Shown piece after piece: positions 5,703-55,500 of a stretch of DNA of 64,000 nucleotides. Numbering within the stretch: position 1 is the stretch's first letter; every line of letters begins with the position of its first letter. The notes below the pieces were generated by a model that made no database searches, was not told the origin of the DNA, and saw only the letters and a list, made by a program, of their open reading frames with translations. This DNA is from an uncultured Spirochaetota bacterium (GTDB taxonomy: Bacteria; Spirochaetota; Spirochaetia; SZUA-6; Fen-1364), in contig CAVTHO010000010.1 in assembly GCA_963734545.1 (NCBI GenBank), positions 32,001 through 96,000 on the forward strand, read 5' to 3'. Position numbers and translations under genes: made by a program.

Positions 5703-7120
5703 CTAGGGTTTCCTGTTGAGCCGGCGGTTCAACGCGGTGCGCGTCAGGCCCAGAAGCCGCGCCGCGGCATCCTGGTTTCCTTTCGAACGGCGGAGGGATT
5801 CCTCGATCAGGAGGTTGCCGGCTTCCCTCAGCGTGGGCAGAGTCTGGCAGGCGCCGAACAGATTCTCCCCTTCCGCCGTGCATGATCCCGCGCCCTTCTC
5901 CGCCGCGCTTACCGCCCTTTCACCCATCGCATTTCGGAAGCTCCCGAGCGACAAGACGCGTGACTGATGACGCACCACCGCGTCGAAAATCAAACCCTCG
6001 AGCTCGCGGATATTGCCGGGAAACGGATAGCTTCGAAGCAGCGGCAGGAGCTCCTTCGGGCACCGTGGGCATGCTCTTGCCGACGGCCTTGGACGCCTTG
6101 TCGAGGAAGTGATCGACCAGGGCGGGAAGGTCGCCCGCTCTCTCCCGCAGCGGCGGTATGCGGATATGGTGGGACCGCAGCCGGTACAGGAGGTCCTTGC
6201 GGAACTTGCCCTCCGCCGTCGCTTGCGCGATATCGAGGTTGGTGGCGAACACGAACCGCGCGGTCGTCGGCCGCGGCCTGTCGGTGCCCAGCGGATAGTA
6301 CTCCCTCTCCTGCAGGAGCCGCAGGAGCTTGATCTGCGATTCGGGGGCAAGGTCCCCGATCTCGTCGAGGAAGAGCGTCCCTTCCTCCGCCTTGGCCACC
6401 ATCCCTTCGCGTGCCGAGTCCGCGCCGGTAAAGGCACCCTTCACGTGCCCGAAGAGGGTGTCCGCGAACAGGGTGTCGTCCAGCCCGGCGACATTCACGG
6501 GAACGAAGCTCCCCGTTCGTCCGGCTCAGCGAGTGGATGGCACGGGCGATCAGCTCCTTGCCGACGCCCGTCTCCCCGGTGATGAGCACGGGAAGCGATG
6601 TCGGGGCGATGGCCTCCGCGTAGCGGAAGATCGCGAGCATCGAGGGGTCCGGCGTGATGATTTCACGAAACGCCTCGGGGTGCGCCGGTCCCGTGGCAAG
6701 GAGACCGTCGCGCAGGGATCCTGACCTCGCGCTCGGTCTCCCACTTCTCGATCGCGTGCCGCACGCTGGTGACCAGGCGCGTGCGGTCGACGGGCTTGGC
6801 AGGTAGTCGAATGCTCCGGCCCGCATGCACCGAACCGCGGTGTCCAGGTCACCGGTTCCCGTGGCCACGATTACCGGGGTCTCGGGCCGTTCCTCCAGGA
6901 TCGTCGGCAGGAGGTCGAGCCCGGAGATCCGGGCAGATTGAGGTCCAGGACGACGGCGGCGAAGGACCCCGCGCGGACCTCGTCGCCAGCCGGCGTCCCC
7001 GTCCGCGCACTCGACGATGTTCGTGATGCCGTCCAGGAGCAGCGCCGCGCGCACGCGAGGCGCGGATCTCCTCCTCGTCGTCCACGATGAGCACGGGGTC
7101 CGCGGGGAGGGGCGGCTCAT
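5703..7120 (-). CDS. NtrC-family sigma54-dependent response regulator (REC-AAA+-HTH_8); frameshifted
   Basis: VLIVDDEE, ITGETGVGKELIARAIH (Walker A), [46 protein letters not shown]. Confidence 0.9.
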
Positions 7121-10100
7121 GGAGCGCTCCCGGACGCGGGAAGCCGCACCGTGACGACGGTCCCTCGTCCACTTCGAGTGAAGCTGCATTGTTCCTCCGT
7201 GATTCTGGACGATGCGGGAGGAGACGGCAGAGGCCGAGCCCCGATCCGCCCTTCTGCCGCTTGGTCGTGAAGAACGGATCGACCACGCGAGACAGGTTCT
7301 CCTGCGGGATTCCGATTCCCTCGTCGGTCACGCTGAGCGTCACCCACTCCCCCTCCGTCTTCGATGGTCGTTGCGATCGTGACCGCCCTTTCCCGTGAAC
7401 GAAAGGGCCTGGCAGGCGTTTGTGACGAGGTTGATCACCACCTGCTCGAGCTGGTGATAGTTCCCCCGCACGGCGGGCAGAGAAGGAGCTCCCGGACTGA
7501 GAAGAAATCCGTCGATTTCTGGATCAGGTTCTGCACGATCATGACTGCCGGACCTGACGACCTTGTTCAGGTCCACGTGCTCGCTCAGGCCGCCCTCGTC
7601 CCCGCGCGCGAAGTCGCGCAGATTGAGGAGGAGCTTCTCGATGCGCTTCGACCCTTCCCCGATGCCCCCCAGGAGCTCATCCACCATGCCCCGCGCCGTC
7701 GTCGTAGGGGATGCCGTGCAGCGTGAGCGCCCCGTCCGTTCGAAGCGAGGTCGTCGAGAACCAGCCGGATGTCGCCCCAGAACTCCGGCGAGGTTCTGGG
7801 AGTTCAGGCGGATGTAGTTGTTGGGATTGTTGATTTCATGAGCGATACCGGAAACCAGGGTGCCGAGCGAGGCGAGCTTCGACGGCCTGGAAGAGCTGCA
7901 GCTCGTGCTCGCGTTCCCGTTCCCGGGCGCTCATCCGCTCCGAGATATCGCGCGACGCGCTCTGGATCTCGATCACGTTCCCGGTCTGCTCGTCCCTGAT
8001 TCCATGGCTGACAGTCTCGAACCAGGTATAGGTGCCGTCCTTGCGGCGGATCCGGTAGCTCACCGTGTAGGAGCTATTCTGCTCCTGAATGGTCGCGTGT
8101 GATCGTGTGACCGCTGCCAGGTCCTCTTCATGGAAGAGATCATACGCGGACCTGCCCACAAGCTCCTCCGGCGCATAGCCGAGCAGCGCCGTGCAGGCGG
8201 GGGACGCATAGAGATATCGCCCGTCCGGTGCGTGGCGGGAGATCATGTCAGTCGAGTTTTCCGCCAGGAGCCGGAAGCGCGCTTCGCTGTCGCGGAGCGC
8301 CTCCTCCATCACCTTGCGTTCGGTCATGTCGCGCGTGATTGAGAGGAGGCGCTTCTTGCCGTCGATCTCGATGATTCTCCAGGACACCATGCCATAGCGT
8401 ATGCTCCCGTTCTTCTTGCGAAACGGCACCCACTCGCCGACGGCCTCTCCACGCTGCGTGACCATTTCGAGCAGCCGCGCCCGGTCGTTCAGGGTTGACC
8501 CAGATACCGAGGTCACGCGGGAAGCTGGACCTGGCCCGATGACCTCGTCCCGCTGATACCCGTACACCTCCGTGAAGCCCCGGTTGACCTCGAGAAGGAC
8601 CCCGTCGTCCAGATGGCTGATCGTGATCGAATCAGGGCTGCCGTGAAAGGCCCGGGAGAACTTCTCTTCGGACTGCCGCAGCGCTTCCACCATCCGTCGG
8701 TTCTCGGTCATGTCCCGGGCCAGGCCGACGAGGCGGTGGATGCGTCCGCGCGTATCGCGGATCGGCACCAGCGTTGTATGGAAATAGGATCGTCCGGTGG
8801 GAAGATCGAGCATGCTTTCGAAGCTCATGGGCCGCCCCGCCTCGATGCATTGACGGTTCTGCTCGTTCACGATCTCCACGACATCCCTCGACATGTACTC
8901 GTCGTTGAACTTTCCGGCCGCGAATGATCGGGGAACTCCCAGCATCCTTTCCTGCGCCGGATTGTACTCCATGAGCCGGTAGCGCTGATCCTGCGTCACT
9001 TCGACCATGAAGAGACCGTCCGAGGTATTCTCGAACACCTCGCGGTAGCGCTGCTCGCTTTCCCGCAGGGCTTCCTCCGCGCGGCGGCGTTCGGTCACGT
9101 CGTGCGCCATCCCGAGAATGCGGCGGATCCTCCCCGACTCGTCGCGCAGCGGCACGAGTGTCGTCTGAAAGGCCATGCTGCCGCCCGGCAGATCGAGCAG
9201 CTCGTCATAGCTGATCGGCGCGCCCGCCTCGATGCAGCGCCGGTAGTTGGCGGTCACCTGAGCGGCTGTTTCAGGAAGCAGGAACTCCTCCATGATCTTC
9301 CCCACGGCCGTCGACGCGGCAATCCCTGTCATCTTCTCCTCGGCAGGATTGAAGCTCACGGCGCGGAAACGCATGTCGGGCGTCACGTCGAGCAGGAATA
9401 TGCCGTCGGATGCCTTTTCGAAGACCTCCCGGTACAACGCCTCACTCGTGCGAAGAGCCGCCCCGGATCGGATGGAGCCGATCACCTCGATGGCAAGAGA
9501 AACGAGGATGCTGCCCAGATCGAGGTCCTGGTCGCTGAACGGAGGGACCTGCTTGTTGTGGAGGGAGACAAGACCGAAATAATCGAGACGCGCATCCGCC
9601 ATGGGCAGGACAAGCAGCGATCCGTTTCGATACCCGTTCCAGCCGTTGCGCGCGTACCCGGGGTCGGCGGCGATGTCTTGGATCAGGACCGGCGCGCAGC
9701 CGGAACGCCTTCTCGAAGACGCACCCGCGCGGCAGCGGGAGGGACAGGTGCCGGGGGGCATGGTCAGGATCGAGCGCGCCGGCCAGCCTGAGCTCCTCCC
9801 CGTCCCGCACGTAGAAGCTCCCGCCGTCCGCTCCCATGATCCGGGCAAACTCCACGAGCAGGTTGTGACAGAATGCATCTTCATCACGCTGGCCGGCGAG
9901 GCGCTTGGCCGATTCCACGAGCCCGCGGAGCCTCTCGTTGAGCTGCGAGAGATCCCTGTTGCCTGCCTCCAGCGCCTGCCGGGCCGCTTCATTTTCCTCC
10001 CGCAGCCTGACCCGCTCGAAGCAACGGTCAAGTGTGGCAAAGAGGTCGTCCGGCTCGACGGGCTTGACGAGGTAGTCATACGCTCCTGCCTTGAGTGCGC

Positions 10101-12338: not shown

Positions 12339-13481
12339 CTATTGCGGCCGCAGGCTCACGTCGAAGCCGGGATCCAGTGCCTGGAGGGTGTCGTAGAGCA
12401 CCTGGAGCACATATTTCGTGTTGTGGATGCCGAGACTCTTGTCGTCGACGATCATCCGGTAGTTGTAGAACGCCGCCACCTCGGGCAGGGGGCGCACGAC
12501 CTCGGACCGCACGAAATTGAAGCTCCCATCCGGCTTGTAGTACGGCGGGTTCAGTTTCTGCAGCAATCCGGTACCGTTCTTGTCGACGAATCGATCGAGC
12601 AGACCCTGGACCTCCAGCTGGAATGGTTCCTTTTTCCCGTTGCGGTCGTAGTCCTCCTGCGCAATGATGTTGAATACTTCCCTGCCGCGCACCTGCGCAA
12701 TATCCCTGTGGCAGGAGATGCAGGCGGACACATTCAGCGTGTCGACTTCGTGCACTTTGCCCGCGATACGGAAACTGTGGCCGCCGAGCTCCATGCTGAG
12801 GCCGGCGCGCCCCTTGGGCAGGCTCATGTGGCAGCTGATGCAGCCGTCGTTCATGACATCCTTGTGCGCCGAGCTGCCGTAGCTTTTGCCGGGGAACTCG
12901 TAGGCGTTTGTGCCCATCGTGATGTCCGCCTGGGGCCCGTGATGCGAGCCCCAGTAGGGGGCCACCTTGTTTGCCGGCAGGGGGACGACCGTCTTTGCCG
13001 CGTCCGCAGTGGCCTTGTGGCAGCTCGCGCACAGGTTGCCGTGCCCGACGTCGAACACCTTCCCGTTTGCGAGGGTGACGGGCGCGATGGTGCGCAGGCT
13101 GAAATCGCCCTTCTCGTGCGGCATGTGGCAGGTGAAGCAGCCGGGCTGCGAGGGATCCGCGATGAACTCCTTGGGGTCGGGTTCACCTCTCTGCGTGAAC
13201 GCGACAAATCCCTCGTGCGTGTGGCACTTCTGGCAGCCCTGGCCGTTCGCGTAGGCCGCATCCCCGATTATCTTGTGGCCCGAAAGCTCGTACCGGGCCC
13301 TTGCGCCAAGGAACGGGTACTTCGCGTTCGTGCTCGAGTGGCAGTTCGTGCACGCGGTGGCGCTCACCACACCCGCGTCCCTGACTTCTCCGCGGCCCGA
13401 CGCGCGCGCGCACGGAGGGACCGCGGCAAGGGATGCCAGCATCAGAACACAGGCCAGCCTCTTCGTGACGGTCATGCTCAT
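12339..13481 (-). CDS. Exported hexaheme c-type cytochrome
   Basis: Signal peptide and six CxxCH motifs (CTNCH, CQKCH, CFTCH, CASCH, CISCH, CISCH); C-terminal [11 protein letters not shown] motif typical of multiheme cytochromes. Confidence 0.92.
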
Positions 13482-15502: not shown

Positions 15503-15840
15503 GCTGAGCCTCCTGTTCGAATCGTCTTGCACGCAAAACCGGTATACATAGTCCCGGCGCAAAGCTGTTTCACAAAAGTTGATTTTGATTGATGCTCTAA
15601 CAGTATCACATATATCAGTTTTTTGCAGTATTAATCGAAAGAATATTCATAAGAATATGATGCAAAAATCCACACGCCCTGCTCATCAAAGCACTCGTCC
15701 TGCCGCAAGCTGATATCCCACTTTTTTCTGCCTGCCTGGGTGTCGCGGATATTTCCGGCGCGTGTTGTATCTTGCAAGTTGTATATAGGAACGAAGGCAT
15801 ACTAAGCAGGCGTTCCAAATGGAGGTATACATTGAGAACC

Positions 15841-17274
15841 ATGGTTCAAAGAGGGCACGCGGCGCGATGGACATTGCTTGTCCTGTCCGTCGTCGTGCTC
15901 GCGGTTGCCGGCTGCGCGCTCGGCGCGGGACCGGCGCAGGGAGTTCCGGGCTACGCCAAAGGCGTCATTACCGCCAAGGGCAGCATCTTCGTGAACGGCG
16001 TCGAGTACGACACAAAGAGCGCCACCATCACGATGGATGACACGGGCACCCATCCTGACAGCGACCTGAAGGTAGGCATGGTGGTCGAGGTGAAAGGCAC
16101 CATCGACAGCGCCACCGGCAAGGGAAGCGCTACGGAGGTGCAGTACGACGCCAATCTCGAAGGCCCGATCGACACGGGAAGCATCGACGCAACGGCGCAG
16201 AGCTTCACCGTGTTCGGCGAGAAGATCGTCGCGGACGCGACCACTGTCTATGAAGGGGTGAGCGGCTTCTCCGGCCTCGCGCAGGGGGATCGGGTCGAGG
16301 TCAGCGGAACGGCTGACACCACCTCCCACGTCATAAAGGCCGCCCGCATAGAGAAGAAGAGCATCGCGGGCAACTTCGAGATCAAAGGCATCGTGAGCGG
16401 CCTGGGCGCCGGAACCTTTACGCTCACCCCGCGGCACGCCGCCGTTGGCATCACGGTGAACTTTACCGGAACGCTCGATGCCGCAATAGTGAACGGGTCA
16501 TTCGTGGAAGTGAAGTTCGCCGCCTTCGGCAACCCGCTCTCCACGACGGCCGACCAGGTCAAGCTCCGCAGGCAGCTTGCGCCCTCCGACAAGGATCGTG
16601 CGGAAGTAGGGGGCGTAGTGGGCAATTTCGTCTCGGGCGCCGGCTCCTCGACCTTCACGGTGGACGGCGTCAACGTGAGCGCGGACAACTCGCTGCTCTC
16701 CGGCGTCACCGACGGCGTCGAGGTCGAAGTGAAAGGGACCATGAGCGCGGGCGTCCTCATCGCAGAAATCGTGCGGGTCGAGCGCGAGAGCAACCTGCTT
16801 CTGGGTGGAACGGTCAGCGCGGTCGATACCGGCGCCGGGACCGTGACGCTGAACGGCGTGACGCTGGCCGTGACCAGCACAACGATCTTCCGCGACAGGA
16901 CCTCGCTCACGCCCGCGGCGTCGTTCAGCCTGGCGAACATCATGGTGGGCGACTATATCGGCGTGCGCGGGTACACGGACTCTTCCGCAAGCCCGGCAGT
17001 GGGAGTCGCTACACGAATCGAACGCCTGGCCGCCCTTCCCGGCTCGCTTCTTGCCGGGCCAGTAAGCGCGGCAGCCACCAACAGCCTGACGATCCTCGGA
17101 ATTTCCGTGGACACGTCTGCAGCGACTTTCCGCGACGCCGACGGTCACAGTGTGACACAGTCCGCTTTCCTCGCGCTCATCACGCCGGGAACGACCCTCG
17201 CAGGTGTGATCGGAACCTCGAGCGGCGCAACCTTCACCGCCACGATCGGGCAGATAGGTGAGGTCGAGCAATAG
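15841..17274 (+). CDS. Putative lipoprotein with tandem DUF5666-like (small beta-barrel) repeats
   Basis: Lipobox-like LAVAGC; about six repeats of G-I/V...T-x-x-G-x-x-V...L-x-x-G-x-x-VEVKG...A-x-x-I/V; RBS GGAGG upstream. Confidence 0.7.
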   Translation: MVQRGHAARWTLLVLSVVVLAVAGCALGAGPAQGVPGYAKGVITAKGSIFVNGVEYDTKSATITMDDTGTHPDSDLKVGMVVEVKGTIDSATGKGSATEVQYDANLEGPIDTGSIDATAQSFTVFGEKIVADATTVYEGVSGFSGLAQGDRVEVSGTADTTSHVIKAARIEKKSIAGNFEIKGIVSGLGAGTFTLTPRHAAVGITVNFTGTLDAAIVNGSFVEVKFAAFGNPLSTTADQVKLRRQLAPSDKDRAEVGGVVGNFVSGAGSSTFTVDGVNVSADNSLLSGVTDGVEVEVKGTMSAGVLIAEIVRVERESNLLLGGTVSAVDTGAGTVTLNGVTLAVTSTTIFRDRTSLTPAASFSLANIMVGDYIGVRGYTDSSASPAVGVATRIERLAALPGSLLAGPVSAAATNSLTILGISVDTSAATFRDADGHSVTQSAFLALITPGTTLAGVIGTSSGATFTATIGQIGEVEQ

Positions 17275-17296
17275 GAGCCTCGCAGGTTGAATCTGT

Positions 17297-17360
17297 AACG
17301 GCGCTCTTGCGCGCGGAGGCCACCCGCCCCGCTCACACGGCAAGGGCGCCGTTCTTTTGT
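17297..17360 (+). terminator. Possible intrinsic terminator after the DUF5666-like gene
   Basis: aacggcgctcttgc / gcaagggcgccgtt stem (one G-U pair) with a long loop, followed by cttttgt. Confidence 0.45.
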
Positions 17361-17386
17361 GAGGTGAAAAATTCCGCCCGGGCCCC

Positions 17387-17415
17387 TTGACAACTGCCGG
17401 CGCGCGTGCTAATGG
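17387..17415 (+). promoter_or_regulatory. Putative sigma70 promoter for the riboswitch-ABC operon
   Basis: Perfect TTGACA at 17387-17392 and an imperfect extended -10 (TGcTAATGG) 17 bp downstream. Confidence 0.5.
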
Positions 17416-17423
17416 TTTCTGTG

Positions 17424-17520
17424 TAGTTGAAGAACAGGTCCGCGCCCAGCGCGGATACCGGGCCGACACTTCCCCGTTGGGGAGGCTTGAGGCAGCAGGC
17501 ACGCCTGCGGGACTCATACT
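17424..17520 (+). ncRNA. NiCo (czcD) transition-metal riboswitch aptamer
   Basis: Conserved junction blocks in the expected order: GAACAGG..P2 (tccgcgc/gcgcgga)..ACCGGGCCG..P3 (cttcccc/ggggagg)..GGCAGCAGGC-ac-GCCTGCGGGAC, closed by a bulged P1. Matches the four-way-junction NiCo consensus as recalled, not by a model search. Confidence 0.75.
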
Positions 17521-17637
17521 CTAACCAGTATCCGTTCCGTGGGCGTTTCTGTTTCAGGAGCGCATCGCGCGGGAAGCCCTGGCCTTCCGCCCGACTTCGC
17601 GCCTGAAACCGGATGCTCCGGACGGGGGAGGCCCCCG

Positions 17638-18955
17638 ATGCATCCGACCATGCCCGGTTCTTCTGCGAATCCACTTCCCCCGAATCGACTCTTCATCTCC
17701 ACAATCGCCGCAATGGCGCTCAAGAACCTCTTCCGCCACCGTCGGCGCACCGTGGTGAACCTCATTGGCATCGCCGTGGCTGTCGGCGCTCTCCTGTTCT
17801 TCCAGGCATTCTACCGCGGCTCCTACGAGGAGCTCATGTTCGGCGCCATCGTCGACTACGAGACCGCCCATCTCCAGGTACAGAGCGCCGCCCTCGTCGA
17901 CGAGGACCCCGATTCGTACGCCCGGGAGCCATCGATGATCCCGGACTGGCAGGTCCTCTGCGGCCGGCTGCGGAATGTCGACGGCGTGCGCGCCCTTGCG
18001 CCTCGTCTCCTCGTTCCCGCCTTTGCGGGGGACGGCGTCCGCACGCGCGCTGTTTTCCTGGTCGGGATGGATCAAGCGGCGGAGCGTGAAACCATGCGGA
18101 CCCTCGATCGACTCAGCGCGGGCCGGCCGCTGTCAGGGCCCGGCCAGGTCCTCGTGGGAGCTTCCCTGGCCAGACTCTTCGGTCTCGAGCCGGGGAGCCA
18201 GCTTCGGGTGCAGGTCCGTACGGTCGATGGCGTGCCCAACATCCAGACGTTCACGATCGCGGGGTTCTTCGTCACCGGGTACGCGCTGATTGATCGGGGC
18301 ATGGTATTCGCGAGCCTCCCTGATGTGCAGGAGGTTTCAAGCGCGGGTGACCGGGTCAACAGGATCCACATTCGCGCGGCTTCCGTCGACGACGTGGACA
18401 CGGTGACCGCCGCCGCCGCGGCCATGCTTTCCCAGGCGCGCCGGCCGCTCGACGGCCGGGACCGCGCGGCTCGTTGCAAAGCCGTGGACGGAATCGGCGG
18501 CGGGGCTCCTTGAGCACACGAAGGGCGACCGGCTCTTCATGTTCGTATTCCTCGCCATCCTCCTGGTCCTCGCGCTCTCCTCGATTGCCGGGACCATGTA
18601 CATGGCCGTCTTCGAGCGCACGAGGGAGATCGGCACCCTGCGCGCCATGGGCTGGCACAGGGGGGAGGTCTTCCAGTTGTTCGTCCTCGAGGCGGCGCTC
18701 ATCGGGATCACGGGATCCATCCTGGGAATCATCCTCGGGGGAGGGGCAAGCATCGCTCTTGCCCGTTTCCCCATCGATCTGAGCGGCAGTTTCGATTCTC
18801 TGGACATCCCGTTTCTGAAGATGACCGCCAGGCTCACGGGCCTGGATGCGGTCGTAGCCTCGCTTGCCGGCGCGGCGGCGGCAGCGGGAGCAGGGATCAC
18901 ACCGGCGCGCCGGGCAGCGTCCCTGGAAATCGTGAAAGCCCTCACCACGCGCTGA
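17638..18955 (+). CDS. ABC transporter permease, LolE/FtsX/MacB type (frameshift near 18440-18530)
   Basis: MALKNLFRHRRRT TM1, periplasmic core, and C-terminal MAVFERTREIGTLRAMG; RBS GGGGGAGG before ATG 17638. Confidence 0.85.
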
Positions 18956-18974
18956 GAGATCAGGGAGGAATATC

Positions 18975-19703
18975 ATGACGACAAAAAGACATGCGGTTCT
19001 CGCGGCGGTGCTGCTGACCTTTTGCCTCTGGCCGCCCTCCGCGCGGGGGGATGAGCGGGGCCGGGCGATCCTCGACGTAATGGACGACGCCATGAACTTC
19101 TCGGAAGGACGCATGCGTCTGCGGATCGAGGACCACAAGGCGAACGGCGCCACCCGCGTGTACGCGGCGGAGGTGCTCTACGTCCTGAACAAGGGCACTC
19201 TCATCGAGTTCGTTGCGCCGCCGCGCGATCGGGGAAAGCGGATCCTGACCGTCGGCGACTCGATGTGGATGTCGGTGCCGGGAACGTCCCGTCCGATCCG
19301 ACTGTCCGGCAAGGACTCGTTCATGGGCACCTCGTTCACCAACGACGACGTCATGAATCTCGATCGCTCCGACGACTACGACGCGGTGACGACGGGAGAG
19401 GAGCCCGAGGGCACCCGGCTGGTCATGACTGCGCGCACGACATCGGTTCCTTACCCGCGCATGGAGATCCTGGTCGGGACCGGCTCCCTGCCGGTCTGGT
19501 CGGTGCTCTACACACGCTCGGGCGTTGCGGCCAAGCGGATCGAGTACAGCTCCCTGACTGACTTCGGTGACAAGGTCCGGCCCGCGGTGATGACGATCAT
19601 CGATCTCATGACCAGGGGTGACCGCAGCGTGGTCGTGTTCGAGGAGATGCGCGCGTCTCCCGTGGACAGGGCAAAGCTGTCTCCGGCCTCATTCGGCAGA
19701 TGA
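18975..19703 (+). CDS. LolA-like outer-membrane lipoprotein-sorting protein
   Basis: Signal peptide; F-x-x-P-x-x-D-R-G...W...SFMGTSFTNDD motif of the LolA_like family; position inside an ABC operon. Confidence 0.8.
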   Translation: MTTKRHAVLAAVLLTFCLWPPSARGDERGRAILDVMDDAMNFSEGRMRLRIEDHKANGATRVYAAEVLYVLNKGTLIEFVAPPRDRGKRILTVGDSMWMSVPGTSRPIRLSGKDSFMGTSFTNDDVMNLDRSDDYDAVTTGEEPEGTRLVMTARTTSVPYPRMEILVGTGSLPVWSVLYTRSGVAAKRIEYSSLTDFGDKVRPAVMTIIDLMTRGDRSVVVFEEMRASPVDRAKLSPASFGR

Positions 19704-19715
19704 CGGGAGGATGAG

Positions 19716-20438
19716 ATGAGCTCCATTCGCATAGAACAGGTGACGAAAAGCTATCGGCTCGGCCACACGGATGTCCCGGCGCTCCGGGGCGTCGACTTTG
19801 CCGTCAATGCCGCCGAGATCGTCGGCATTGTCGGGCCCTCCGGCTCGGGGAAGTCCACCCTTCTCAATATCGTCGGCTGCATCGACACGCCCACGAGCGG
19901 CCGCATCGTGATGGACGGCGTGGACCTGGGCACCTTGAAGGACAGGGACCTCACCGAGGTGCGGCGCGGCTCCATCGGGTTCGTTTTCCAGTCCTTCAAC
20001 CTGATCCCGGTCCTGAACGCCTTCGAGAACGTGGAGCTGCCCCTCCTGGCCCTCGGGATTCCGAGCGGACGGCGCAGGCGCATGGTGGGGGAGATCCTGG
20101 AGCGCGTCGCGCTCTCCGCGTACATGCATCATCGCCCCGATGAGCTCTCCGGCGGTCAGCGCCAGCGGGTGGCGGTGGCCCGGGCCCTCGTCATATCGCC
20201 CCGGCTCGTGCTTGCCGATGAGCCGACGGCGAACCTCGATGGGGAAAACGGCCGGGCGATCATGGAGATGATGCACGTGATCAATCATGAGCTTTCCAGC
20301 ACGTTCCTCCTTGCCACGCACGATCCGCGTGTCCTGCCCTTCCTCGACCGGCGCATCTACCTGGAAGACGGAAGGATCAAAAGCATCGAAGACCTTCCGG
20401 GGAGGCCGGCAAGTGCCGCCAGGAGCGGCCGAGCATGA
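19716..20438 (+). CDS. ABC transporter ATP-binding protein (LolD/MJ0796 type)
   Basis: GPSGSGKST, IGFVFQSFNL, LSGGQRQRVAVARAL, ADEPTANLD, THD. Confidence 0.95.
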   Translation: MSSIRIEQVTKSYRLGHTDVPALRGVDFAVNAAEIVGIVGPSGSGKSTLLNIVGCIDTPTSGRIVMDGVDLGTLKDRDLTEVRRGSIGFVFQSFNLIPVLNAFENVELPLLALGIPSGRRRRMVGEILERVALSAYMHHRPDELSGGQRQRVAVARALVISPRLVLADEPTANLDGENGRAIMEMMHVINHELSSTFLLATHDPRVLPFLDRRIYLEDGRIKSIEDLPGRPASAARSGRA

Positions 20439-21553
20439 GACCGCGCAGCGCGCACCCGCGCCGGGGCAGCTTCGGCCCGAGGGGGAAATGGCTCCCTCTG
20501 GTCCTGGTCCTTTTCCTGGCCCCGCTGGCCCGGTCGGCGGCCCTCACCGCCGAAGGGAGCCTGTTCGTCCAGGCAGGGCCGACGCTTCTTCGGGAGGATC
20601 TCCCCTCCGGATCAGTGCCCGACTGGACGGCGCAGACCCTGGCGGGCATACGGATCAGCGGCGCCGGCCCGGCGGCCGAGCTCGCCATAGAGGCGCTCTA
20701 TGCGCACGATGTCGTCTCCCGCTCGGATATGCTGTTCCTCGAGGAGGCATGGGCGGCGTGGAAGCCGGTCGACGGTTTCACCATGCGGTTCGGGAGGCAA
20801 CGCCTCGGGTTCGGCTGCGGCTTTGCGTGGAGTGTCGTGGACGACCTGGACCCCCAGCCAATGCCCTTTGATCCGCATCTCCCCCGGGTGGGTCTGGATG
20901 CGTTCAGCCTCTCGTTCGACTTCACGCCGCTCGGCGCGCCGGTCAAAGTGGCTGCCGAGGCATTTGCTCCGCGGACAGAAGGCGGTGGGCCTCTTCTGGT
21001 CGTGCACGGCATCAACACCGCATTCCCCGCGGGCACGGGCGCGTCCCTGCCCCGGCTTGCCGATTGTGGAGCGGCGGCGCAGGTCTCTGCCTTCCTCGGG
21101 GGGTTCGAGATCGGCGCGGCAGGGTCGATCCGGGAGTTTGCCCCGGATCCGCCGATTTCCATCGGCGGATGGGTCACCGTGGACATCGCCGGGTTCGTTC
21201 TCGGCGCCGAGGGGGCATGGCGGAATGCAGGCGGGGAGCTCCTGGTGAACTGCAACAGGCGCGCGGGAGATTTCGCTGCAGTTGCGGAGACCCGATGGGT
21301 TGCCGGGAGCGACCGCGTGTGGCTCTTCGGCCAGGTTTCCTGGAGCCGCGGAGATCTGAGCGCGGCGGTCTCCACGCTCTTTTCCCTCCGAGAAGCCTCG
21401 GGTCTGGCGGACCTCGGCCTTTCCTACACAGCCTCGGATGCGCTCGTGCTCTCCGCAGGCGTGACCTTCTACGAGCGGCCGGACGCTCTTCCCGAGATCG
21501 GACCCTCGCCCTACAGGTGCGCGGTCTCGGCAAGCGCAGAGTACTTCTTCTAA
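20435..21553 (+). CDS. Exported protein, probable outer-membrane beta-barrel
   Basis: Signal peptide, alternating-polarity beta segments (LEEAW, RFGRQRLGFG), and a terminal aromatic EYFF (BAM-signal-like). Confidence 0.55.
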   Translation: MRPRSAHPRRGSFGPRGKWLPLVLVLFLAPLARSAALTAEGSLFVQAGPTLLREDLPSGSVPDWTAQTLAGIRISGAGPAAELAIEALYAHDVVSRSDMLFLEEAWAAWKPVDGFTMRFGRQRLGFGCGFAWSVVDDLDPQPMPFDPHLPRVGLDAFSLSFDFTPLGAPVKVAAEAFAPRTEGGGPLLVVHGINTAFPAGTGASLPRLADCGAAAQVSAFLGGFEIGAAGSIREFAPDPPISIGGWVTVDIAGFVLGAEGAWRNAGGELLVNCNRRAGDFAAVAETRWVAGSDRVWLFGQVSWSRGDLSAAVSTLFSLREASGLADLGLSYTASDALVLSAGVTFYERPDALPEIGPSPYRCAVSASAEYFF

Positions 21554-21563
21554 GAGGAGGTGC

Positions 21564-22859
21564 GTGATGAGCCAGTTTCTTCTTGCCGCGCGGCTCGCGT
21601 CCCGCGGAGTCCGCGCCTACCGACGCCGCAGCCTGCAGACGCTCCTTGTCGTGGGCTTCGGCGTCGCGCTCGTCGTCCTCACGGATTCGTTCATGCAGGG
21701 GTTCTCCGCGAAAATCATGGACCAGATGCTCAGCGCGACGGGCCACCTCTCCCTCACGGCGCCGGGCTACGCGGCACAGCGGGAAGTGGCACCCATCGAT
21801 CTTTTCATTCCCGACGTGGAGGTATTGAAGGAGAGGATACGAAAGGACGCCGTGGCTGCCGCGCCTGATGGATCACTGGTGCTTTCCGCCTCGATCTTCA
21901 GCGCCGGACTGGTATCCGACGGCGAGCGCTCCGTCACGACGACCTGCAGGGGCATCGACCCATTCTGGCAGGGGACGATAGTTCCCTCCCTGCGTGACGT
22001 GGCGCGCCGGGTGGAAGGGAGTTTCTTTGTGCCGGGCGGCGCGCCGGGGCTTCTCGTTTCGCGCCGCGTGGCGGACAAGCTCAACGCACGCCCGGGAGAC
22101 CGGCTGATGTTCCTGTGCTCCGACCGCTATGGCTCCTTTGGAGTTGTGGAGCTGGTCCTGCTCGGCATTTTTCCGAAGGGAGCGGCAATGGGGGGAGAAG
22201 AGTGCCTGATGGACCTGGCCCCCATGCAGTCCGTCACCGGCCTTGAAGGGGGAGCGTCGGAGATTTCCGTCTGGCGTCTGCAGGAAAGAGCGGGCGGACG
22301 GGTTCTGGCCAATCCCCGTGAGCCCTCACCGGTGATAGAGGAGGCGGCCAGGATTGCACGGGCGGCAGGATGCGTGGCGCAGAGGTGGAGCGAGATCTCC
22401 GCCTCCTACGGGAGCATGATGAGCTTCTTCGACCTCTATATGGCGATCATGTGCGTCATATTCGCGGTTGTGGCGGCCATGGGAATGACCAATTCCATAT
22501 TGCTTTCCGTGCAGGACAGGATCCGGGACATCGGCACGCTGCGTGTGGTCGCCCTGTCACGCGGGGGTGTCTCGCTCATGGTGGCTCTTGAATCCTTTAT
22601 TCTGGGTCTCTGTGGCGCAGCAGCAGGTGCCCTCATCGGCGGTGCAGCCTCATTCCTGTTGGAGCACTTCGGGTTCACCCTTCAGGTGGAGCTGGAGGCA
22701 ATCGCGAGCTACATGCAGAACGGCATGAGGCCGCGCTTTTCCCCCGGGCGGGCCGCGATAATCGGACTGGTCGCTTCCTGCGTTCCTCTCCTTGCGTCAC
22801 TGCTGCCGATCGCAACACTGCGCAGGATCACGGTGAGGGAGGCGCTGGGCTACATATAG
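21564..22859 (+). CDS. Second LolE/FtsX-type ABC permease
   Basis: RRRSLQTLL TM1; LSVQDRIRDIGTLRVVAL; C-terminal TMs. Confidence 0.88.
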   Translation: MMSQFLLAARLASRGVRAYRRRSLQTLLVVGFGVALVVLTDSFMQGFSAKIMDQMLSATGHLSLTAPGYAAQREVAPIDLFIPDVEVLKERIRKDAVAAAPDGSLVLSASIFSAGLVSDGERSVTTTCRGIDPFWQGTIVPSLRDVARRVEGSFFVPGGAPGLLVSRRVADKLNARPGDRLMFLCSDRYGSFGVVELVLLGIFPKGAAMGGEECLMDLAPMQSVTGLEGGASEISVWRLQERAGGRVLANPREPSPVIEEAARIARAAGCVAQRWSEISASYGSMMSFFDLYMAIMCVIFAVVAAMGMTNSILLSVQDRIRDIGTLRVVALSRGGVSLMVALESFILGLCGAAAGALIGGAASFLLEHFGFTLQVELEAIASYMQNGMRPRFSPGRAAIIGLVASCVPLLASLLPIATLRRITVREALGYI

Positions 22860-23104
22860 AGGGCGGCGGCAGCGGACCTGCCCGCGCCCCGAGCAATCCG
22901 CCGGAGGTAGCCTTCGGCGACGAGCTGATCGAGAGCGTTCTTCACGGCAGCGCGGGAGACATTCGTCTCCCGCGCAATCTGCTGCGCGGGGCTCATATGA
23001 TCTCCCGCGGGGAGCGAGCCGGAAAGGATTCGGTCCCTGATGAGGGTGAAAATCCGGGTGGCTGCCGGCTCCCGAGATGCCCGATGGGGGTCAGGAATCG
23101 ACAT
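22850..23104 (-). pseudogene. GntR/MocR-type wHTH fragment lacking an effector domain
   Basis: IRDRILSGSLPAGD...IARETNVSRAAVKNALDQLVAEGYL; only 84 aa, ending in a convergent overlap with the permease. Confidence 0.6.
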
Positions 23105-49587: not shown

Positions 49588-52500
49588 CTAGCGGGCAATT
49601 TCGTCAAGCCACCAGGTCAGGCGCGCAAGGACCTTCTTCCGCAGGTCGCTCGGGCAATTCTGTCCCTGGTCAGCCTGGTCCCTCCCGGGTCCGCCGTCCA
49701 GCGTGTCGTGCCCGTCCCCGCCCACCAGCCAGTCATCGCCCGCGCCGCCTCGCAGGATGTCGCTCCCGTCCTGCCCGAACAGGATGTCATCCCCATCCCC
49801 ACCCTGCATGGTGTCCTGGTCGAAGGGGCCACCCGGGCAGCCCTCGTGCCTGCTCAGGTACAGCCCGCTGCCTCGTTCGCCCGTGGAGGCCCAGAGCCAG
49901 AAGCTCTCCTGGGCCAGGCCCATGTCCAGAAGGTCTTCGGCCAGCTCCTCCGCGTCGTATCGCACCCGGCAATAGCTCTTCTGGCTCAGTCCCTCGCCGG
50001 CAACCACCAGCGGCGCAGCGAATGCGGCGCTGTCCCCGAAAGCCAGGTCATTTCCCGCACCCGCGTCAAATAAATCGTTTCCAGCGGACCTGGCATCCGC
50101 CAGACCGTCCCCGCCATGCTCGTCACTGCAGCAGCTCCTGCCACCGTCGTGATCGCCGCGGGAATCATGACCCGAGTCGTAGTGGTTGCCCCAGAAATCA
50201 TGGCCCCAGTTGTCGTGGCTGCCCCAGGAATCATGGCCCCAGTTGTCGTGGCCGCCCCAGAAATCATGGCCGCAGTTGTCGTGCCCGCCCCAGCCGCAGC
50301 CGTTGTGCCGCGGAGCAGGTGACTCGTCAGGCACCAGGGTGATCACCGGGACGAGAGAGCTCCACCGGTCGCCCACCAGGACGTCGTCACCCTCCCCGCC
50401 GGCCAGGGAATCGTTGCCCGAGACAATGAGGTCGATATGATACACGAGATTGATCCGCGGCTTCCTGCCGGCTGTCACGGTCACGAACGTCTTTCTGAGG
50501 TCGTGGGAAACATCGTCGATCTCCCGCAGCACCCCGCCTGCCATGCACGCGATGTCCTCCGCCTCCTCCACGAAGTCATCCAGGGAGAGCACCAGGCCCA
50601 CGGGGACCGTCAAGGATGGCGCCGCTATCGTCATGTCGTCGCCCACCAGGAAGTCCCTGCCCGTGCCGCCGTCGAGCTGGTCACAGCCGATCCTGAAGGT
50701 ATGGTCCACGACGGTGTCGCGGGAAGCGAAGCAGCCGCCATCAACCCACTTGCCGATCGCCTTATCTATCCGATCCAGGAAATGTGACAGCTCATCGATC
50801 GCCGCGGAGAGATCCTGCCCCATTCCCGTCGCAGTTCCCAGAATCCCCGCGGTAACCTTGAGCGTGGGGGCGAAAACGACCCGGTTGTCGCCCACCAGGA
50901 CATCGTCTCCGGCTCCGCCGCGGAGCGTGTCATTGCCGGCAACGAGGCCGAGGTGGTGCGCCACGTCCGTGACGAACGAGGCCAGCGGCGCCAGGCGGAC
51001 GCCGTCGAGACGATCGAGAGTGTTCGTGCTCGGGAGAATCGAAAGGTCGCAGCCGGCATGGGTAAGGACGGCCGCGAAGGGATCCACGGCCTGGCCGGGA
51101 ACAACCGAGAGCACCGGCACGATCGTGGTGCCGGCGGCGGCCACCCTGATATCTCCCGCCGGCCCGTTCCCCGCGTCGCCCGGGATCAGCAGCAGCCCGC
51201 GGAGAACGTTCGGCAGCGGGGAAGCGGAAGCGACCTGCACCGCGTCATCGCCGACCAGGACGTCGGCGTCGTCACCGCCGTCCAGCAAGTCGTCCCCCGC
51301 GCCTCCGACCAGGAAATCAATGCCCAGCCCGCCGGTGAGCCAGTCGTCCCCACGGCCGCCGAACAGGGCATCGTCCCCGGCGCCTCCGTCCAGGACGTCA
51401 TTGCCGTCCGCACGCAGCGATACGAGGATGAGCTCCGTCTCCCACTTCTGGCATCCCCACGCGTTACGGACGAGGTGTCGGCTCCCGTCGGCGTTGTAGG
51501 CGCCGACCACGAGCACGAGGTCAGCGTTCAGAAGATCGGAAATCACGTCCGGGTCCAGGTCACCCCACCAGAGGCTGCTCGGGTGATACACGCCTGTGAT
51601 GACGCCCACGTCCGTCAGCAGGACATCCGAGTGCCAGGAGCCGTTCGGATCGAGCCGTGGCGTCCCATCCGGGTTGTATGCGGGCGTGATGATCCCCACG
51701 TCGCCCAGCAGGACATCGTTGCCCTCGCCGCCGCTCACCTCATCGCTTCCCAGCCCCGCGACGATCAGGTCATCACCCGCGTTCCCGCTGATCAGGTCAT
51801 TCCCTGACCCGCCCGCGATCCTGTCGTTGCCATTGTCACCCGTAATGACCAGGTCTGTCGTCACAACGGCCGCGTCGATAACGTCGCACCCTCCCTCACC
51901 GTGGATGATCAGGGCGATGGGGTCCGTCTCGGTGACGGTGACCAGGTCATCTCCCTCTCCCGACCACAGCGTCGTTGTCGTGCCGATGCTCTCGTGGGTG
52001 GAGCGTACCTCGATCGTGTTTCCGCCCGAGCCGCATTCTATGTTGATCCCGCCGCCGAACGTGCCATCCGTGGCCGCGTAGTATATATTCGCGGGCGAGA
52101 GTCCCGTGAGGGAGCTGCTGGTGATGACGACGTTCGAATCCGGCGTCCCGTCAGCCTCGTCACTCACGTTCAGCGAGTTGACTCCTCCCCCTGCTTCGAT
52201 TTCGAGCACCCCGAGGATGCCGTCCAGCGTCCCTCCGTTGGCAGGAGCATCGGAGGAGACATTGACTGTGTCGTTTCCAGTGCCCGTGACCATGCGCGTG
52301 TGGGCCGACGTGGATTGGACATTGACCGTATTCCCGCCCGAGCCCAGGGCGATGTTCAGGCTCTCCACGCCGCTGTAGCCGATCCCGTCGCTCATCCCCA
52401 GGCCCGTGATGCTGTCCGCGGTGAGGGTGAGGCTGTTTGGCTCGCTGTCTCCGCTGTCGTCCACGTTCAGGGTGTCCTCGCCCTCCCCGCCGATGAGGGT

Positions 52501-55500
52501 CAGGGGGGCCAGGATGAGGTTCACCGTGCCGCCTGCATCAGGCGCCATGGAACCGACGTTGATCGTGTCGGCCCCCGGCCCCGCGTTCACCGTAGTTGCT
52601 GAGCCGATGGACTGGATGTTCAGTATGTCACCGCCCGAGCCCAGGGCGATGTTCAAGCTCTCCACGCTGCTGTAGCCGATCCCGCCGCTCATCCCCAGGC
52701 CCGTGATGCTGTCCGCGGTGAGGGTGAGGCTGTTTGGCCTCGCCGTCTCCGCTGTCGTCCACGTTCAGGGTGTCCTCGCCCTCCCCGCCGATGAGGGTCA
52801 GGGGGGCCAGGATGAGGTTCACCGTGCCGCCTGCATCAGGCGCCATGGAACCGACGTTGATCGTGTCGGCCCCCGGCCCCGCGTTCACCGTAGTTGCTGA
52901 GCCGATGGACTGGATGTTCAGTATGTCACCGCCCGAGCCCAGGGCGATGTTCAGGCTCTCCACGCCGCTGTAGCCGATCCCGTCGCTCATCCCCAGGCCC
53001 GTGATGCTGTCCGCGGTGAGGGTGAGGCTGTTGGGCTCGCTGTCTCCGCTGTCGTCCACGTTCAGGGTGTCCTCGCCCTCCCCGCCGATGAGGGTCAGGG
53101 GGGCCAGGATGAGGTTCACCGTGCCGCCTGCATCAGGCGCCATGGAACCGACGTTGATCGTGTCGGCCCCCGGCCCCGCGTTCACCGTAGTTGCTGAGCC
53201 GATGGACTGGATGTTCAGTATGTCACCGCCCGAGCCCAGGGCGATGTTCAAGCTCTCCACGCTGCTGTAGCCGATCCCGCCGCTCATCCCCAGGCCCGTG
53301 ATGCTGTCCGCGGTGAGGGTGAGGCTGTTTGGCCTCGCCGTCTCCGCTGTCGTCCACGTTCAGGGTGTCCTCGCCCTCCCCGCCGATGAGGGTCAGGGGG
53401 GCCAGGATGAGGTTCACCGTGCCGCCTGCATCAGGCGCCATGGAACCGACGTTGATCGTGTCGGCCCCCGGCCCCGCGTTCACTGTGGTTGCTGAGCCGA
53501 TGGACTGGATGTTGACCGTATTCCCGCCCGAGCCCAGGGCGATGTTCAGGCTCTCCACGCCGCTGTAGCCGATCCCGTCGCTCATCCCCAGGCCCGTGAT
53601 GCTGTCCGCGGTAAGGACGAGGCTGTTTGGCTCGCCGTCTCCGCTGTCGTCCACGTTCAGGGTGTCCTCGCCCTCCCCGCCGTTGAACACAACCCCACCG
53701 ATGGGAACGGGGATCCCTCCGACAAAGTCGACAGTCAAAGTGTCCCCGTCGTCGGACCCGTTGAACGTGAGGAAAGGCGCCTCAGCGGCCGTGATGATAT
53801 AGACGACCGTTCCGTTCAGAGACACCTGGATATTCCCTCCGTCGCGGAACAGCCGGAAGGTGTCCTGCTCGCCATCATTCATTCTCGGGCCGGCGTCGAT
53901 GACGGAATCTTCCCACACCGTGACAGCGAAGGACTGTTCGTCACTGGCAGCGGGGTCGGCGTTGTCCGTGACCCGCACGGTGAAGGTGTACACGAAGGGC
54001 CCCTGTGCCTCCGTGGGAATCCAGGTCAGCTCACCGGTGGAGGCGTCGAGGAAAACGAATGCCGGCGCCTGGTCCAGGTGGAAGGTCAGGACGTCCGTCC
54101 CGTCCGGGTCGGTCGCGACGATTGTCAACCGCAGCTCGACGCCTTCCGTGGCAGACTGATCACCGATGAAACCCAGGACCGGGGCATCGTTGACGCCCTG
54201 CACGATCACCACGACCCGGGCTGTCGCCGTCCCGGCCTTGCCGTCGGAAACGGTATAGGTGAAGGCGTCTGAGGCGGATTCGTCGAAAGCCAGATAGTCG
54301 AACACGCCGCGGGGGTCATAGGTATAGGTGCCATCACCGTTATCCGTCACGGTCCCCAGGGTCCCGGTGGTGTCAATGGAAACGATGGAGAGGATGTCGC
54401 CCGGGTCGGGATCGTGGTCGTTGGAAAGGAGGAAAGACGCCTGGATGATCAGCGCCGTGTCCTCGTCCGTCAACAGTTCGTCGTCCACCGCCATCGGCAA
54501 TGACTCCACCAGGACGCTGAGGGTGCCCTCGAACACCGCATCGTCCGCCCCGGACATCGTCACGGTCACGACATAGGTACCGCCCAGCTCCCACGTGTGG
54601 GAGATATCGGCCGTGACCGGGGTGTCCGCGCCCTCAGTGAAGGGCACGGTCCGGGTTTCGGTGGGCGAGCCATCGCCGAAGTCGAAGACCAGCCGGGCGT
54701 CCGCCCCGTTCATGGAATAGGACCCCAGGGGATCGCGGATGTCCACGTGGATGAGCGCGGGCCTTCCCTCGTACGCGCCGCCGGTGAGGGTCGGCTCCAC
54801 CACGAGATAGTGCTCGATGCCGGAGACGACCCCGCCGCTCAAGGCGGTCTCGACCCGCTGACCGATGATGACGCGATCCACGAACAGGTCCCCGCCGGCC
54901 TCGAGCTGAAGCATATTGGAGTACCGGTCGGCGGCCAGGAGGACGCGCGTGCTGACGATGTTCCCCGGGGAATGCACAATGAGCGATCCGTCGCTCACCG
55001 TCGCATTCCTGAGCTCGATGGACCCTGCGGCATTGATCTCGAGATCGCCCGCACCGCGCACGAAGGCCTCGATCCGGCGGACGTTCACGTCCGCGCGGAA
55101 CCCGTTCTGGGCCGTCATCTTGAGCGTATCCGCGCTGATGAGGGCGCCGACAGCCTGTGAAATGGTCCCGGCATCCAGATCGATGCGGCTCCCCTGAAGC
55201 GCCGTTCCGCCGAGGGTATTCAGCCGCAGCTCGTTTGTCGCCGTCAGCGCGATCCCCGCGCCCGAAGACTCGGCCAGGGAGCCCCGGTTCGTGAAAATGA
55301 TGTTTTCAGCACGCAGATCCACCGCGCCGCGGGCAACGAGGGCGGCGTCAACGATGATGTCCCGCTCTGCAACGATGTTCCACGGTCCCTGGTAATCGGC
55401 GCCGAGAAGGACGCTGAGGTTATCCCGGGAGACAAGGGTCCCCACCGGCCAGGCGCCCGTGTCGACCTGGATCGCGAGCCCCGCCGTAAGCTCGGCCTGA

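Follow-up and report, generated by a model that had tools for sequence, protein, structure and literature searches.

The window analysed here is a stretch of 64,000 nucleotides of contig CAVTHO010000010.1 (assembly GCA_963734545.1), from the genome of an uncultured member of the Spirochaetota that is 5.14 Mb long, assembled in 10 contigs and 89% complete (referred to as G000); all positions are given in the numbering of the window. It carries an aptamer of the NiCo (czcD) class of metal riboswitches in the leader of a five-gene operon, which encodes two FtsX/MacB-type permeases, an ABC ATPase, a LolA-like carrier and a predicted outer-membrane barrel. We consider it very probable, from the alignments described below, that this leader is a genuine NiCo (czcD) class riboswitch, in the form of a structural variant with a long P3 helix. 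Taken together, the data make it moderately probable that a NiCo metal-ON transcriptional switch drives a Lol-like route across the envelope. The idea of a LolA-like ABC operon fronted by a metal riboswitch had been put forward in an original prediction on this DNA, and it is supported by the covariance-model match, by the NiCo sites found at homologous operons and by the structural model of the barrel.

Identity and conservation of the NiCo aptamer

In a sensitive Rfam scan of positions 17280–17700, the NiCo (czcD) model RF02683 is matched over its full length (model positions 1–96 of 96) at 17423–17517 on the forward strand, with a score of 29.1 bits and an E-value of 1.4e-4. A NiCo search of the whole genome (5.14 Mb) returns the same site as its sole match, with an E-value of 3.9e-4. 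The comparison with the covariance model that had been recommended with the prediction thus gives a significant match, though one below the Rfam cut-off. The prediction also held that the junction blocks of the class occur in order in the leader, and this is so: they are found at 17432, 17458, 17491 and 17505, in exact alignment with the model, and a loose pattern of the four ordered blocks occurs once in the 64-kb window, both strands counted. Both GGG runs of the junction (in J2/3 and in J4/1) are present, as are the two A residues that take part in the terminal G.A pairs. According to the accessible part of a preprint (10.1101/2025.08.02.668262), these guanine runs and adenines are the cobalt-binding and G.A-pairing residues; the mapping of the crystal numbering onto motif positions was made in the present analysis.

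The same arrangement is found at orthologous operons. When the LolA-like protein was used as a query against 61 related genomes, 29 of them gave a match at E<=1e-10, many to distant paralogues, and close orthologues (53–54% identity) were found only in the genomes labelled G036, G024 and G022. The leaders of these three operons match the NiCo model with 43.9, 42.9 and 37.3 bits, respectively, on the same strand and all above the gathering cut-off of RF02683 in Rfam, which is 37 bits; the aptamer lies about 80 nucleotides before an intact permease 1 of 420 residues. A metagenome contig, L049, carries the same aptamer variant as the window (29.5 bits), before an intact operon. From the aptamer core to the 3' arm of the terminator-like hairpin discussed below (17432–17545), L049 and the window are identical at 114 of 114 positions; their identity is 72% for the LolA-like protein and 56–61% for permease 1. 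It had been suggested that homologous LolA-like ABC operons be searched for NiCo elements, and these four sites are the result of that search.

Counting the window, the aptamer precedes permease 1 by 80–120 nucleotides in five of the seven orthologous operons that were found, and all four of the others that have a high-GC leader carry it at the same place. The operon is present in four of the 92 species genomes of the order that were surveyed (four of 27 genera), all four of which have the aptamer, and a pattern scan of 185,579 species genomes returned only the same three relatives. In a tree of 18 LolA-like proteins, the five that are linked to a NiCo element form one clade (100/100), whose sister group is the pair of unlinked ones (99/98); all paralogues fall outside. 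Within the tree, G036 groups with G024 and G022 although it comes from another taxonomic family, which points to lateral spread. The genes around the operon are different from one genome to the next, so that the leader and the five genes appear to travel together; a composition check revealed no GC anomaly across the operon. We conclude that an accessory Lol-like operon acquired the aptamer on a single occasion, within a small clade of uncultured spirochaetes of high GC content.

Covariation supports the four-helix P1–P4 fold. A covariance model built from three leaders was used to align eight sites, five ABC-linked and three linked to genes of cation diffusion facilitators (CDF). Over the four helices, 98.7% of 154 cells are paired and nine of 22 pairs have changed on both sides. 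None of 500 shuffles reaches either value, and when the partners are slid by 1–3 columns, 25–36% of the cells pair.

Several observations pull in the other direction. The aptamer of the window scores below the 37-bit cut-off, and a scan of the 64-kb window at the Rfam gathering thresholds gave no match; we attribute the low score to the 26-nucleotide insertion in P3, to the shortened loops of P2 and P4 and to three deleted positions in P1. In the alignment to RF02683, P1 is irregular and mispaired, and the window has one extra T at 17427 compared to related strains, a version that is backed by contigs identical to the window. The alignment used for covariation was fitted to the structure of the model, which favours that structure, and it lacks one site, that of the genome G044, which was not recovered. 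Last, two operons from small, low-GC genomes in a 401-genome sample of the phylum (G146 and G321) match the operon in all five genes and in their arrangement, and no NiCo element was found for them at the operon (E<=1) or genome-wide, nor was anything recognisable by eye in their upstream regions; the riboswitch link is therefore confined to one clade. We note that several copies of a short palindromic unit of the type agcac...gtgct, and paired arms of the type gtgaag...cttca, are seen by eye within the 530-nucleotide region that precedes the G321 operon (locus L056, 2700–2990), which has no match in Rfam.

The score under the curated threshold, together with a z-score of only –1.08 for the fold of the aptamer alone, could also mean that GC-rich DNA happens to resemble the model by chance. 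The E-values, both local and genome-wide, the occurrence at the same position in the orthologues, the covariation and the complete identity with L049 over the core make this exceedingly improbable.

Elsewhere in the phylum, NiCo sites precede CDF genes (in G026, G029, G004 and G540) and, in G044, a gene for a P-type ATPase. The G044 site (locus L044, G044:C237, 6868–6941, reverse strand) is sub-threshold, with 31.7 bits, and lies before an 886-residue P-type ATPase with Cation_ATPase_N and Cation_ATPase_C domains; this target recalls the MgtA-like one mentioned in the accessible part of the article by Xu and Cotruvo (PMC9389577). NiCo matches are found in only three of the 151 genomes of a sample of the class. 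In G000, G024 and G036, the site before the Lol-like operon is the sole one in the genome, and the CDF genes that G000 has elsewhere are without a NiCo element. No NiCo-like element was found at 35 further loci (208,778 bases, mostly about 1.5 kb on each side), which comprise paralogous LolA-like loci, the CDF loci of G000 and records from Borrelia and E. coli. The genome G022 has a second, weak NiCo-like candidate (locus L072, G022:C406:21921–22002, reverse strand; 24.4 bits, E-value 0.0067) before a 427-residue open reading frame (ORF) without family and a type-I ABC exporter; this candidate could be due to chance.

The junction nucleotides are kept in all five ABC-linked sites, with no difference from the CDF-linked sites of the same phylum. 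This argues against the idea that the RNA has kept the NiCo fold but now recognises a different ligand, a change that would account for the unusual gene behind it. The atypical gene association, the 26-nucleotide extension of P3 and the sub-cut-off score of the window type would all be consistent with such a change, and other riboswitch classes are known to include variants whose ligand has changed; since the junctions are conserved in five of five sites, three of which score above the Rfam cut-off, we nevertheless regard it as improbable.

Predicted promoter and switching mechanism

The gene directly upstream of the leader (15772–17274, forward strand) codes for a 500-residue protein with four DUF5666 stretches, and is not conserved beside the operon in other genomes. 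The hairpin and T-run that close it (Table 1) make the leader a separate transcription unit. From the layout of the sigma-70-like promoter that follows, transcription is predicted to start at about 17421–17423, right where the aptamer begins. All five NiCo-linked leaders show, by eye, this –35 element, the 17-nucleotide spacing and a –10 element of the TG-n-TA type; the promoter is not called by a consensus scanner because its –10 element is weak. For the leader, put at about 240 nucleotides in the prediction, the transcribed length is corrected to about 215 nucleotides (from about 17423 to 17637).

Taken alone, the terminator-like hairpin downstream of the aptamer core has a predicted folding energy of –25.7 kcal/mol and a z-score of –5.41, and none of 200 shuffles is as good. 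In the unconstrained fold of the full leader, with the window and with L049 alike, P4 and P1 are replaced by a stem of 13 bp (17501–17513/17534–17546), whose 5' arm consists of the 3' strand of P4 and the junction GGGAC. The same segment is termed the anti-terminator or switching strand in the accessible part of the preprint on this class (10.1101/2025.08.02.668262). The overlap between the terminator-like hairpin and the switching strand corresponds to a classic metal-ON design, and on the strength of these predicted folds we think it quite probable that the leader is an ON switch that operates via termination. A rise in cytoplasmic Fe2+, Co2+ or Ni2+ would make these ions lock the four-way junction, and the switching strand (17501–17513) would then be held in P4 and P1. 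The terminator-like hairpin (17501–17555) would be unable to form, and RNA polymerase would read into the operon.

Further downstream, the Shine–Dalgarno sequence and the start codon of permease 1 are enclosed in another hairpin (Table 1). Its counterpart in L049 differs in its letters and keeps the pairing, as judged by eye (–30.8 kcal/mol, z-score –2.9), and it is predicted in both the free and the aptamer-enforced ensembles.

This scheme has its difficulties. The U-tract that follows the terminator-like hairpin is interrupted. Moreover, in the leaders of the G036 type (G036, G024 and G022), a long hairpin also competes with P4 and no U-tract comes after it. The possibility that the folding of the aptamer releases the Shine–Dalgarno sequence in these leaders was considered and rejected: the sequence is paired in the free and in the aptamer-enforced ensembles (probability of being unpaired 0.21–0.32 against 0.01–0.16).

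The operon, its proteins and their possible cargo

Table 1. Predicted features of the leader and genes of the operon, in window coordinates.
Feature	Positions	Strand	Remarks
Terminator-like hairpin and T-run	17337–17361	+	stem 17337–17352, T-rich tail; closes the upstream DUF5666 gene
Sigma-70-like promoter	17387–17415	+	TTGACA at 17387–17392, 17-nucleotide spacer, –10 hexamer at 17410–17415 after TGC (extended –10)
NiCo (czcD) class aptamer	17423–17517	+	four-helix junction, all junction blocks, 26-nucleotide P3 extension, short P2 and P4 loops, irregular P1
Terminator-like hairpin	17501–17555	+	arm 17501–17513 pairs with 17534–17546; small apical hairpin inside; U-rich tract 17546–17555
Hairpin around the Shine–Dalgarno sequence and start codon	17610–17646	+	encloses GGGGGAGG (17624–17631) and ATG (17638–17640); –22.3 kcal/mol, z-score –1.2
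Permease 1	17638–18955	+	starts at ATG 17638, behind GGGGGAGG at 17624; MacB_PCD periplasmic domain, then FtsX C-terminal domain; two frames, one-base indel near 18441–18455
LolA-like carrier (PF17131)	18975–19703	+	predicted periplasmic, signal peptide (N-terminus by eye); 99.4 bits, cut-off 30
ABC ATPase, LolD/MacB/FtsE group	19716–20438	+	LolD model 222.9 bits, below the cut-off of 307.75
Predicted outer-membrane barrel, 372 residues	20435–21553	+	without Pfam or NCBIfam family; signal peptide; aromatic C-terminus
Permease 2	21564–22859	+	MacB_PCD and FtsX; intact

The five genes announced in the original prediction are all present, in an order that differs from the one given there: permease, LolA-like protein, ATPase, barrel, permease. 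Among proteins of solved structure, the best relatives of the ATPase are MJ0796 (E-value 3.2e-64), LolD (3.9e-52) and MacB, and that of permease 2 is LolF (1.2e-5). By sequence similarity, the ATPase and both permeases fall into the MacB/Lol (type VII) group. For the carrier, the best relative with a solved structure is NE2245 (PDB 3buu; E-value 3.8e-18), a member of the LolA superfamily to which no function is assigned.

Permease 1 is split into two frames. A tblastn comparison with the intact orthologue of L049 places the break at 18441–18446, the two halves being 56% and 61% identical to it and otherwise undamaged. Four contigs from three public runs of three studies, which are 90–99% like the window, each have one base fewer, at 18453 or 18455, and the omission of any single base at 18450–18456 gives a single permease 1 frame of 438 residues; the contigs identical to the window gave no coverage of 18440–18600, which includes the site of the indel. 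This DNA occurs in wetland and sediment habitats, and no RNA run is listed as containing it. Other genes of the assembly are broken as well: a CDF gene (G000:C5:72357–72768) lies in two frames, and a sigma-54 activator (5990–7189, reverse strand) is seen as domain fragments only. Together with the split of permease 1, they suggest that one-base assembly indels are frequent, and the split appears to be strain-specific or, more likely, an assembly indel.

One may ask whether the locus in G000 is instead a relic in decay, in which P1 has weakened, the aptamer has fallen below the threshold and permease 1 has been split. The mispaired P1, the two frames of permease 1 and the patchy occurrence of the module (four of 92 genomes of the order) are what such a decay would leave. 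That it should be so is quite improbable, however, considering that the core from aptamer to terminator is identical to that of L049, where the operon is intact, that both halves of permease 1 are free of other damage, that the four contigs of related strains lack the extra base, and that the further frame-broken genes of G000 point to errors of assembly.

The 372-residue protein was modelled with AlphaFold2 from an alignment of 56 rows. The model, of high confidence (predicted local distance difference test, pLDDT, 90.6; predicted template modelling score, pTM, 0.84), has 19 strand elements after the signal helix, 18 of which count at least 8 residues. The closest structural matches are OccAB3 (Z 22.1, root-mean-square deviation 3.7 over 294 aligned residues), OpdQ (Z 21.9), chitoporin (21.7), AlgE1 (20.9), Wzi (20.6) and maltoporin (19.8), which we take to be 18-stranded outer-membrane barrels; the top five align over 277–302 residues with deviations of 3.5–4.3, and AlgE is also a match at an E-value of 3.4e-11. 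Other general porins have Z-scores of 15–16, and Omp85-type chains of 10–13 (CdiB 12.8, FhaC 12.6, TamAB 11.1, BamA 10.2). The protein is thus modelled as an outer-membrane barrel that most resembles the OprD/AlgE/Wzi channels, a likeness of fold that does not imply one of function. The prediction of a putative outer-membrane barrel is borne out by this model.

All orthologues of the barrel protein have a signal peptide and aromatic C-terminal residues. Its family counts 934 relatives (cluster representatives) at E<=1e-3. None of the 44 members that were scanned reaches any Pfam cut-off; the sub-threshold hints are OMP_b-brl (twice) and Porin_O_P, DUF1302 and DESULF_POR1 (once each). In NCBIfam, the protein of the window has no match, and the weak matches among 56 members name no family; the family profile found nothing among PDB sequences. 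Of 14 loci that were scanned, 13 have a LolA-like gene, and in 12 of these a gene of the barrel family is found next to it or close by; the remaining locus, on a Borrelia record, lacks both. In a cluster of E. coli EDL933, the gene after the LolA-like one is likewise matched by the family (hhalign 89.5%, E-value 2e-6). This locus (L058, NZ_CP124742.1, 1–9100) has a PF17131 protein, an ABC ATPase, a permease and a 462-residue member of the barrel family within a ketoacyl-synthase/acyl carrier protein (ACP)-malonyltransferase cluster, and is a possible example of lipid export by the same module. In view of this fatty-acid/polyketide-like context, a lipophilic cargo fits the family at large.

In the mechanism that we favour, the type VII ABC transporter, made of the two different FtsX/MacB-type permeases and the LolD-like ATPase, would pull a cargo, either hydrophobic or anchored by a lipid, out of the inner membrane at its outer face. 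The soluble PF17131 carrier would ferry this cargo over the periplasm, and the outer-membrane barrel would take it up or release it. We would give a little less than an even chance to the Lol-like export of a hydrophobic cargo that is not a metal. More tentatively, it may be that the metal riboswitch, probably reporting an overload of Fe2+, directly commands this ABC-driven route from the inner membrane to the LolA-like carrier and on to the outer-membrane channel. A point that weighs against the scheme as a whole is that Pfam and NCBIfam scans reveal no likeness to known metal transporters in any of the five proteins; the genes behind the aptamer code for neither a CDF, nor a P-type ATPase, nor a resistance-nodulation-division (RND) protein, and depart from the metal-efflux association of the NiCo class.

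Another possibility is that the switch works as described and that the module expels a metal or a metal chelate (a metallophore or a metalloporphyrin) from the periplasm via the barrel, as an ABC-powered counterpart of the tripartite metal and siderophore pumps. The other NiCo targets observed in this phylum are all cation exporters, and in G000, G024 and G036, which have no other NiCo site, the operon would be the main output of the sensor. The best structural matches of the barrel are open substrate channels or secretion pores (Occ/OprD, chitoporin, AlgE), and MacB-type pumps export pyoverdine and protoporphyrin. On the other hand, the operon encodes neither a membrane-fusion adaptor nor a TolC-like duct, its carrier has the LolA fold, which is known to bind acyl chains, a relative of the module sits in the fatty-acid/polyketide-like cluster of E. 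coli EDL933, and G000 has CDF genes elsewhere; the export of a metal or metal chelate by this module therefore seems unlikely to us.

If the favoured scheme, with a lipid or lipoprotein as cargo, is right, it would be the first link of a metal riboswitch to outer-membrane trafficking or remodelling; a metal or chelate cargo would mean a new kind of trans-envelope metal efflux system. In either case, the orphan family formed by the PF17131 carrier, the barrel and the FtsX-type ABC transporter would gain its first physiological signal, and the function of PF17131 LolA-like ABC-barrel modules would become a testable question. NiCo/czcD riboswitches are known as controllers of cation exporters; the position of one of them before a Lol-like module, in a clade of spirochaetes, suggests that the regulon of metal riboswitches is wider than ion transporters.

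Two other regions of the window may be mentioned. About 4 kb upstream of the riboswitch, a 380-residue ORF (12339–13481, reverse strand) has sub-threshold hints of a multihaem cytochrome (an MtrC/MtrF-like domain and CXXCH families); should its product be an iron reductase that acts outside the cell, a lifestyle in Fe2+-rich surroundings would fit. A 3556-residue ORF with cadherin-like and Ig-like domains (53223–63893, reverse strand) adjoins the gene of a 1034-residue protein with RTX calcium-binding repeats (49588–52692, reverse strand).

Comparison with known systems

The founding paper on NiCo riboswitches is reportedly that of Furukawa et al., in 2015. Our literature search found no published link of a NiCo riboswitch to a Lol-like or LolA-like module, the founding paper and its supplements, possibly with gene-association tables, being beyond its reach and other sources having been accessible in part. 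In the accessible parts of more recent articles, NiCo/czcD riboswitches are described before P1B4-type and MgtA-like ATPases and czc genes (PMC9389577, PMC11672702, PMC11477304), and the identity of their true ligand, Fe2+ or Co2+/Ni2+, is debated (PMC9389577, PMC11672702). Xu and Cotruvo mentioned in 2022, in the part of their article that was accessible, that some NiCo targets are apparently not ATPases (PMC9389577). About 783 representatives of the class are reported (PMC9481103), and it also occurs in metagenome-assembled genomes of uncultured Spirochaetes. Like other members, the leader of the window has a four-helix junction with the conserved guanines and adenines, and its switching strand is shared with a terminator (ON logic). 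It differs by its long P3, its sub-cut-off score and the operon that it precedes, which encodes a Lol-like ABC transporter, a LolA-like carrier and a barrel instead of a CDF or a P-type ATPase.

The module has in common with the MacAB-TolC tripartite pumps the ABC superfamily (type VII) and the architecture of the periplasmic domains. Unlike in these pumps, the ATPase is unfused, and neither a membrane-fusion adaptor nor a TolC-like duct was seen in a search limited to the operon and its six ORFs.

The likeness to LolCDE-LolA-LolB, or to the homodimeric LolF, extends to the two FtsX-type permeases with MacB-like periplasmic domains, the separate LolD-like ATPase and the soluble carrier of LolA fold. 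The proteins remain below the equivalog cut-offs, however, with 58.7 bits for the lolCE model (cut-off 362.45) and 222.9 bits for LolD (cut-off 307.75). The carrier is a PF17131 protein, for which a Pfam scan reported no canonical LolA family, and the acceptor is an integral barrel, whereas LolB is a lipoprotein. The module is also accessory and patchy, being found in four of 92 genomes of the order.

Another spirochaete, Borrelia, has a gene cluster, BBJ23–29, that is described in the accessible part of the article by Nixon et al. (2026, PMC13078400) as coding for a MacB-like ABC transporter, a LolA-like protein and an Omp85-type barrel whose cargo is not known. The window has the same three kinds of component, an ABC transporter of MacB type, a LolA-like carrier and a barrel in the outer membrane, while no riboswitch is reported for the Borrelia cluster in that part of the article (PMC13078400). 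BBJ25 is described there as an Omp85-type protein, whereas the barrel of the window matches Omp85-type chains with Z-scores of 10–13, against 20–22 for its top matches. Homology between the two systems was considered and rejected, since hhalign gives 0.2% for the barrel family against BBJ25 and 0.15% for the carrier against BBJ28; a tblastn search of plasmids with the LolA-like protein returned 26 records, none of them from Borrelia. A short region with a GRQ..G.G motif is common to the barrel family and BBJ29 (locus L065, Borrelia lp38, 22007–23008), the match being weak (hhalign 9.3%, E-value 0.0035, 41 columns). The Borrelia cluster is the closest published protein system and, as judged from these profile comparisons, is analogous rather than homologous to the module that the NiCo aptamer precedes.

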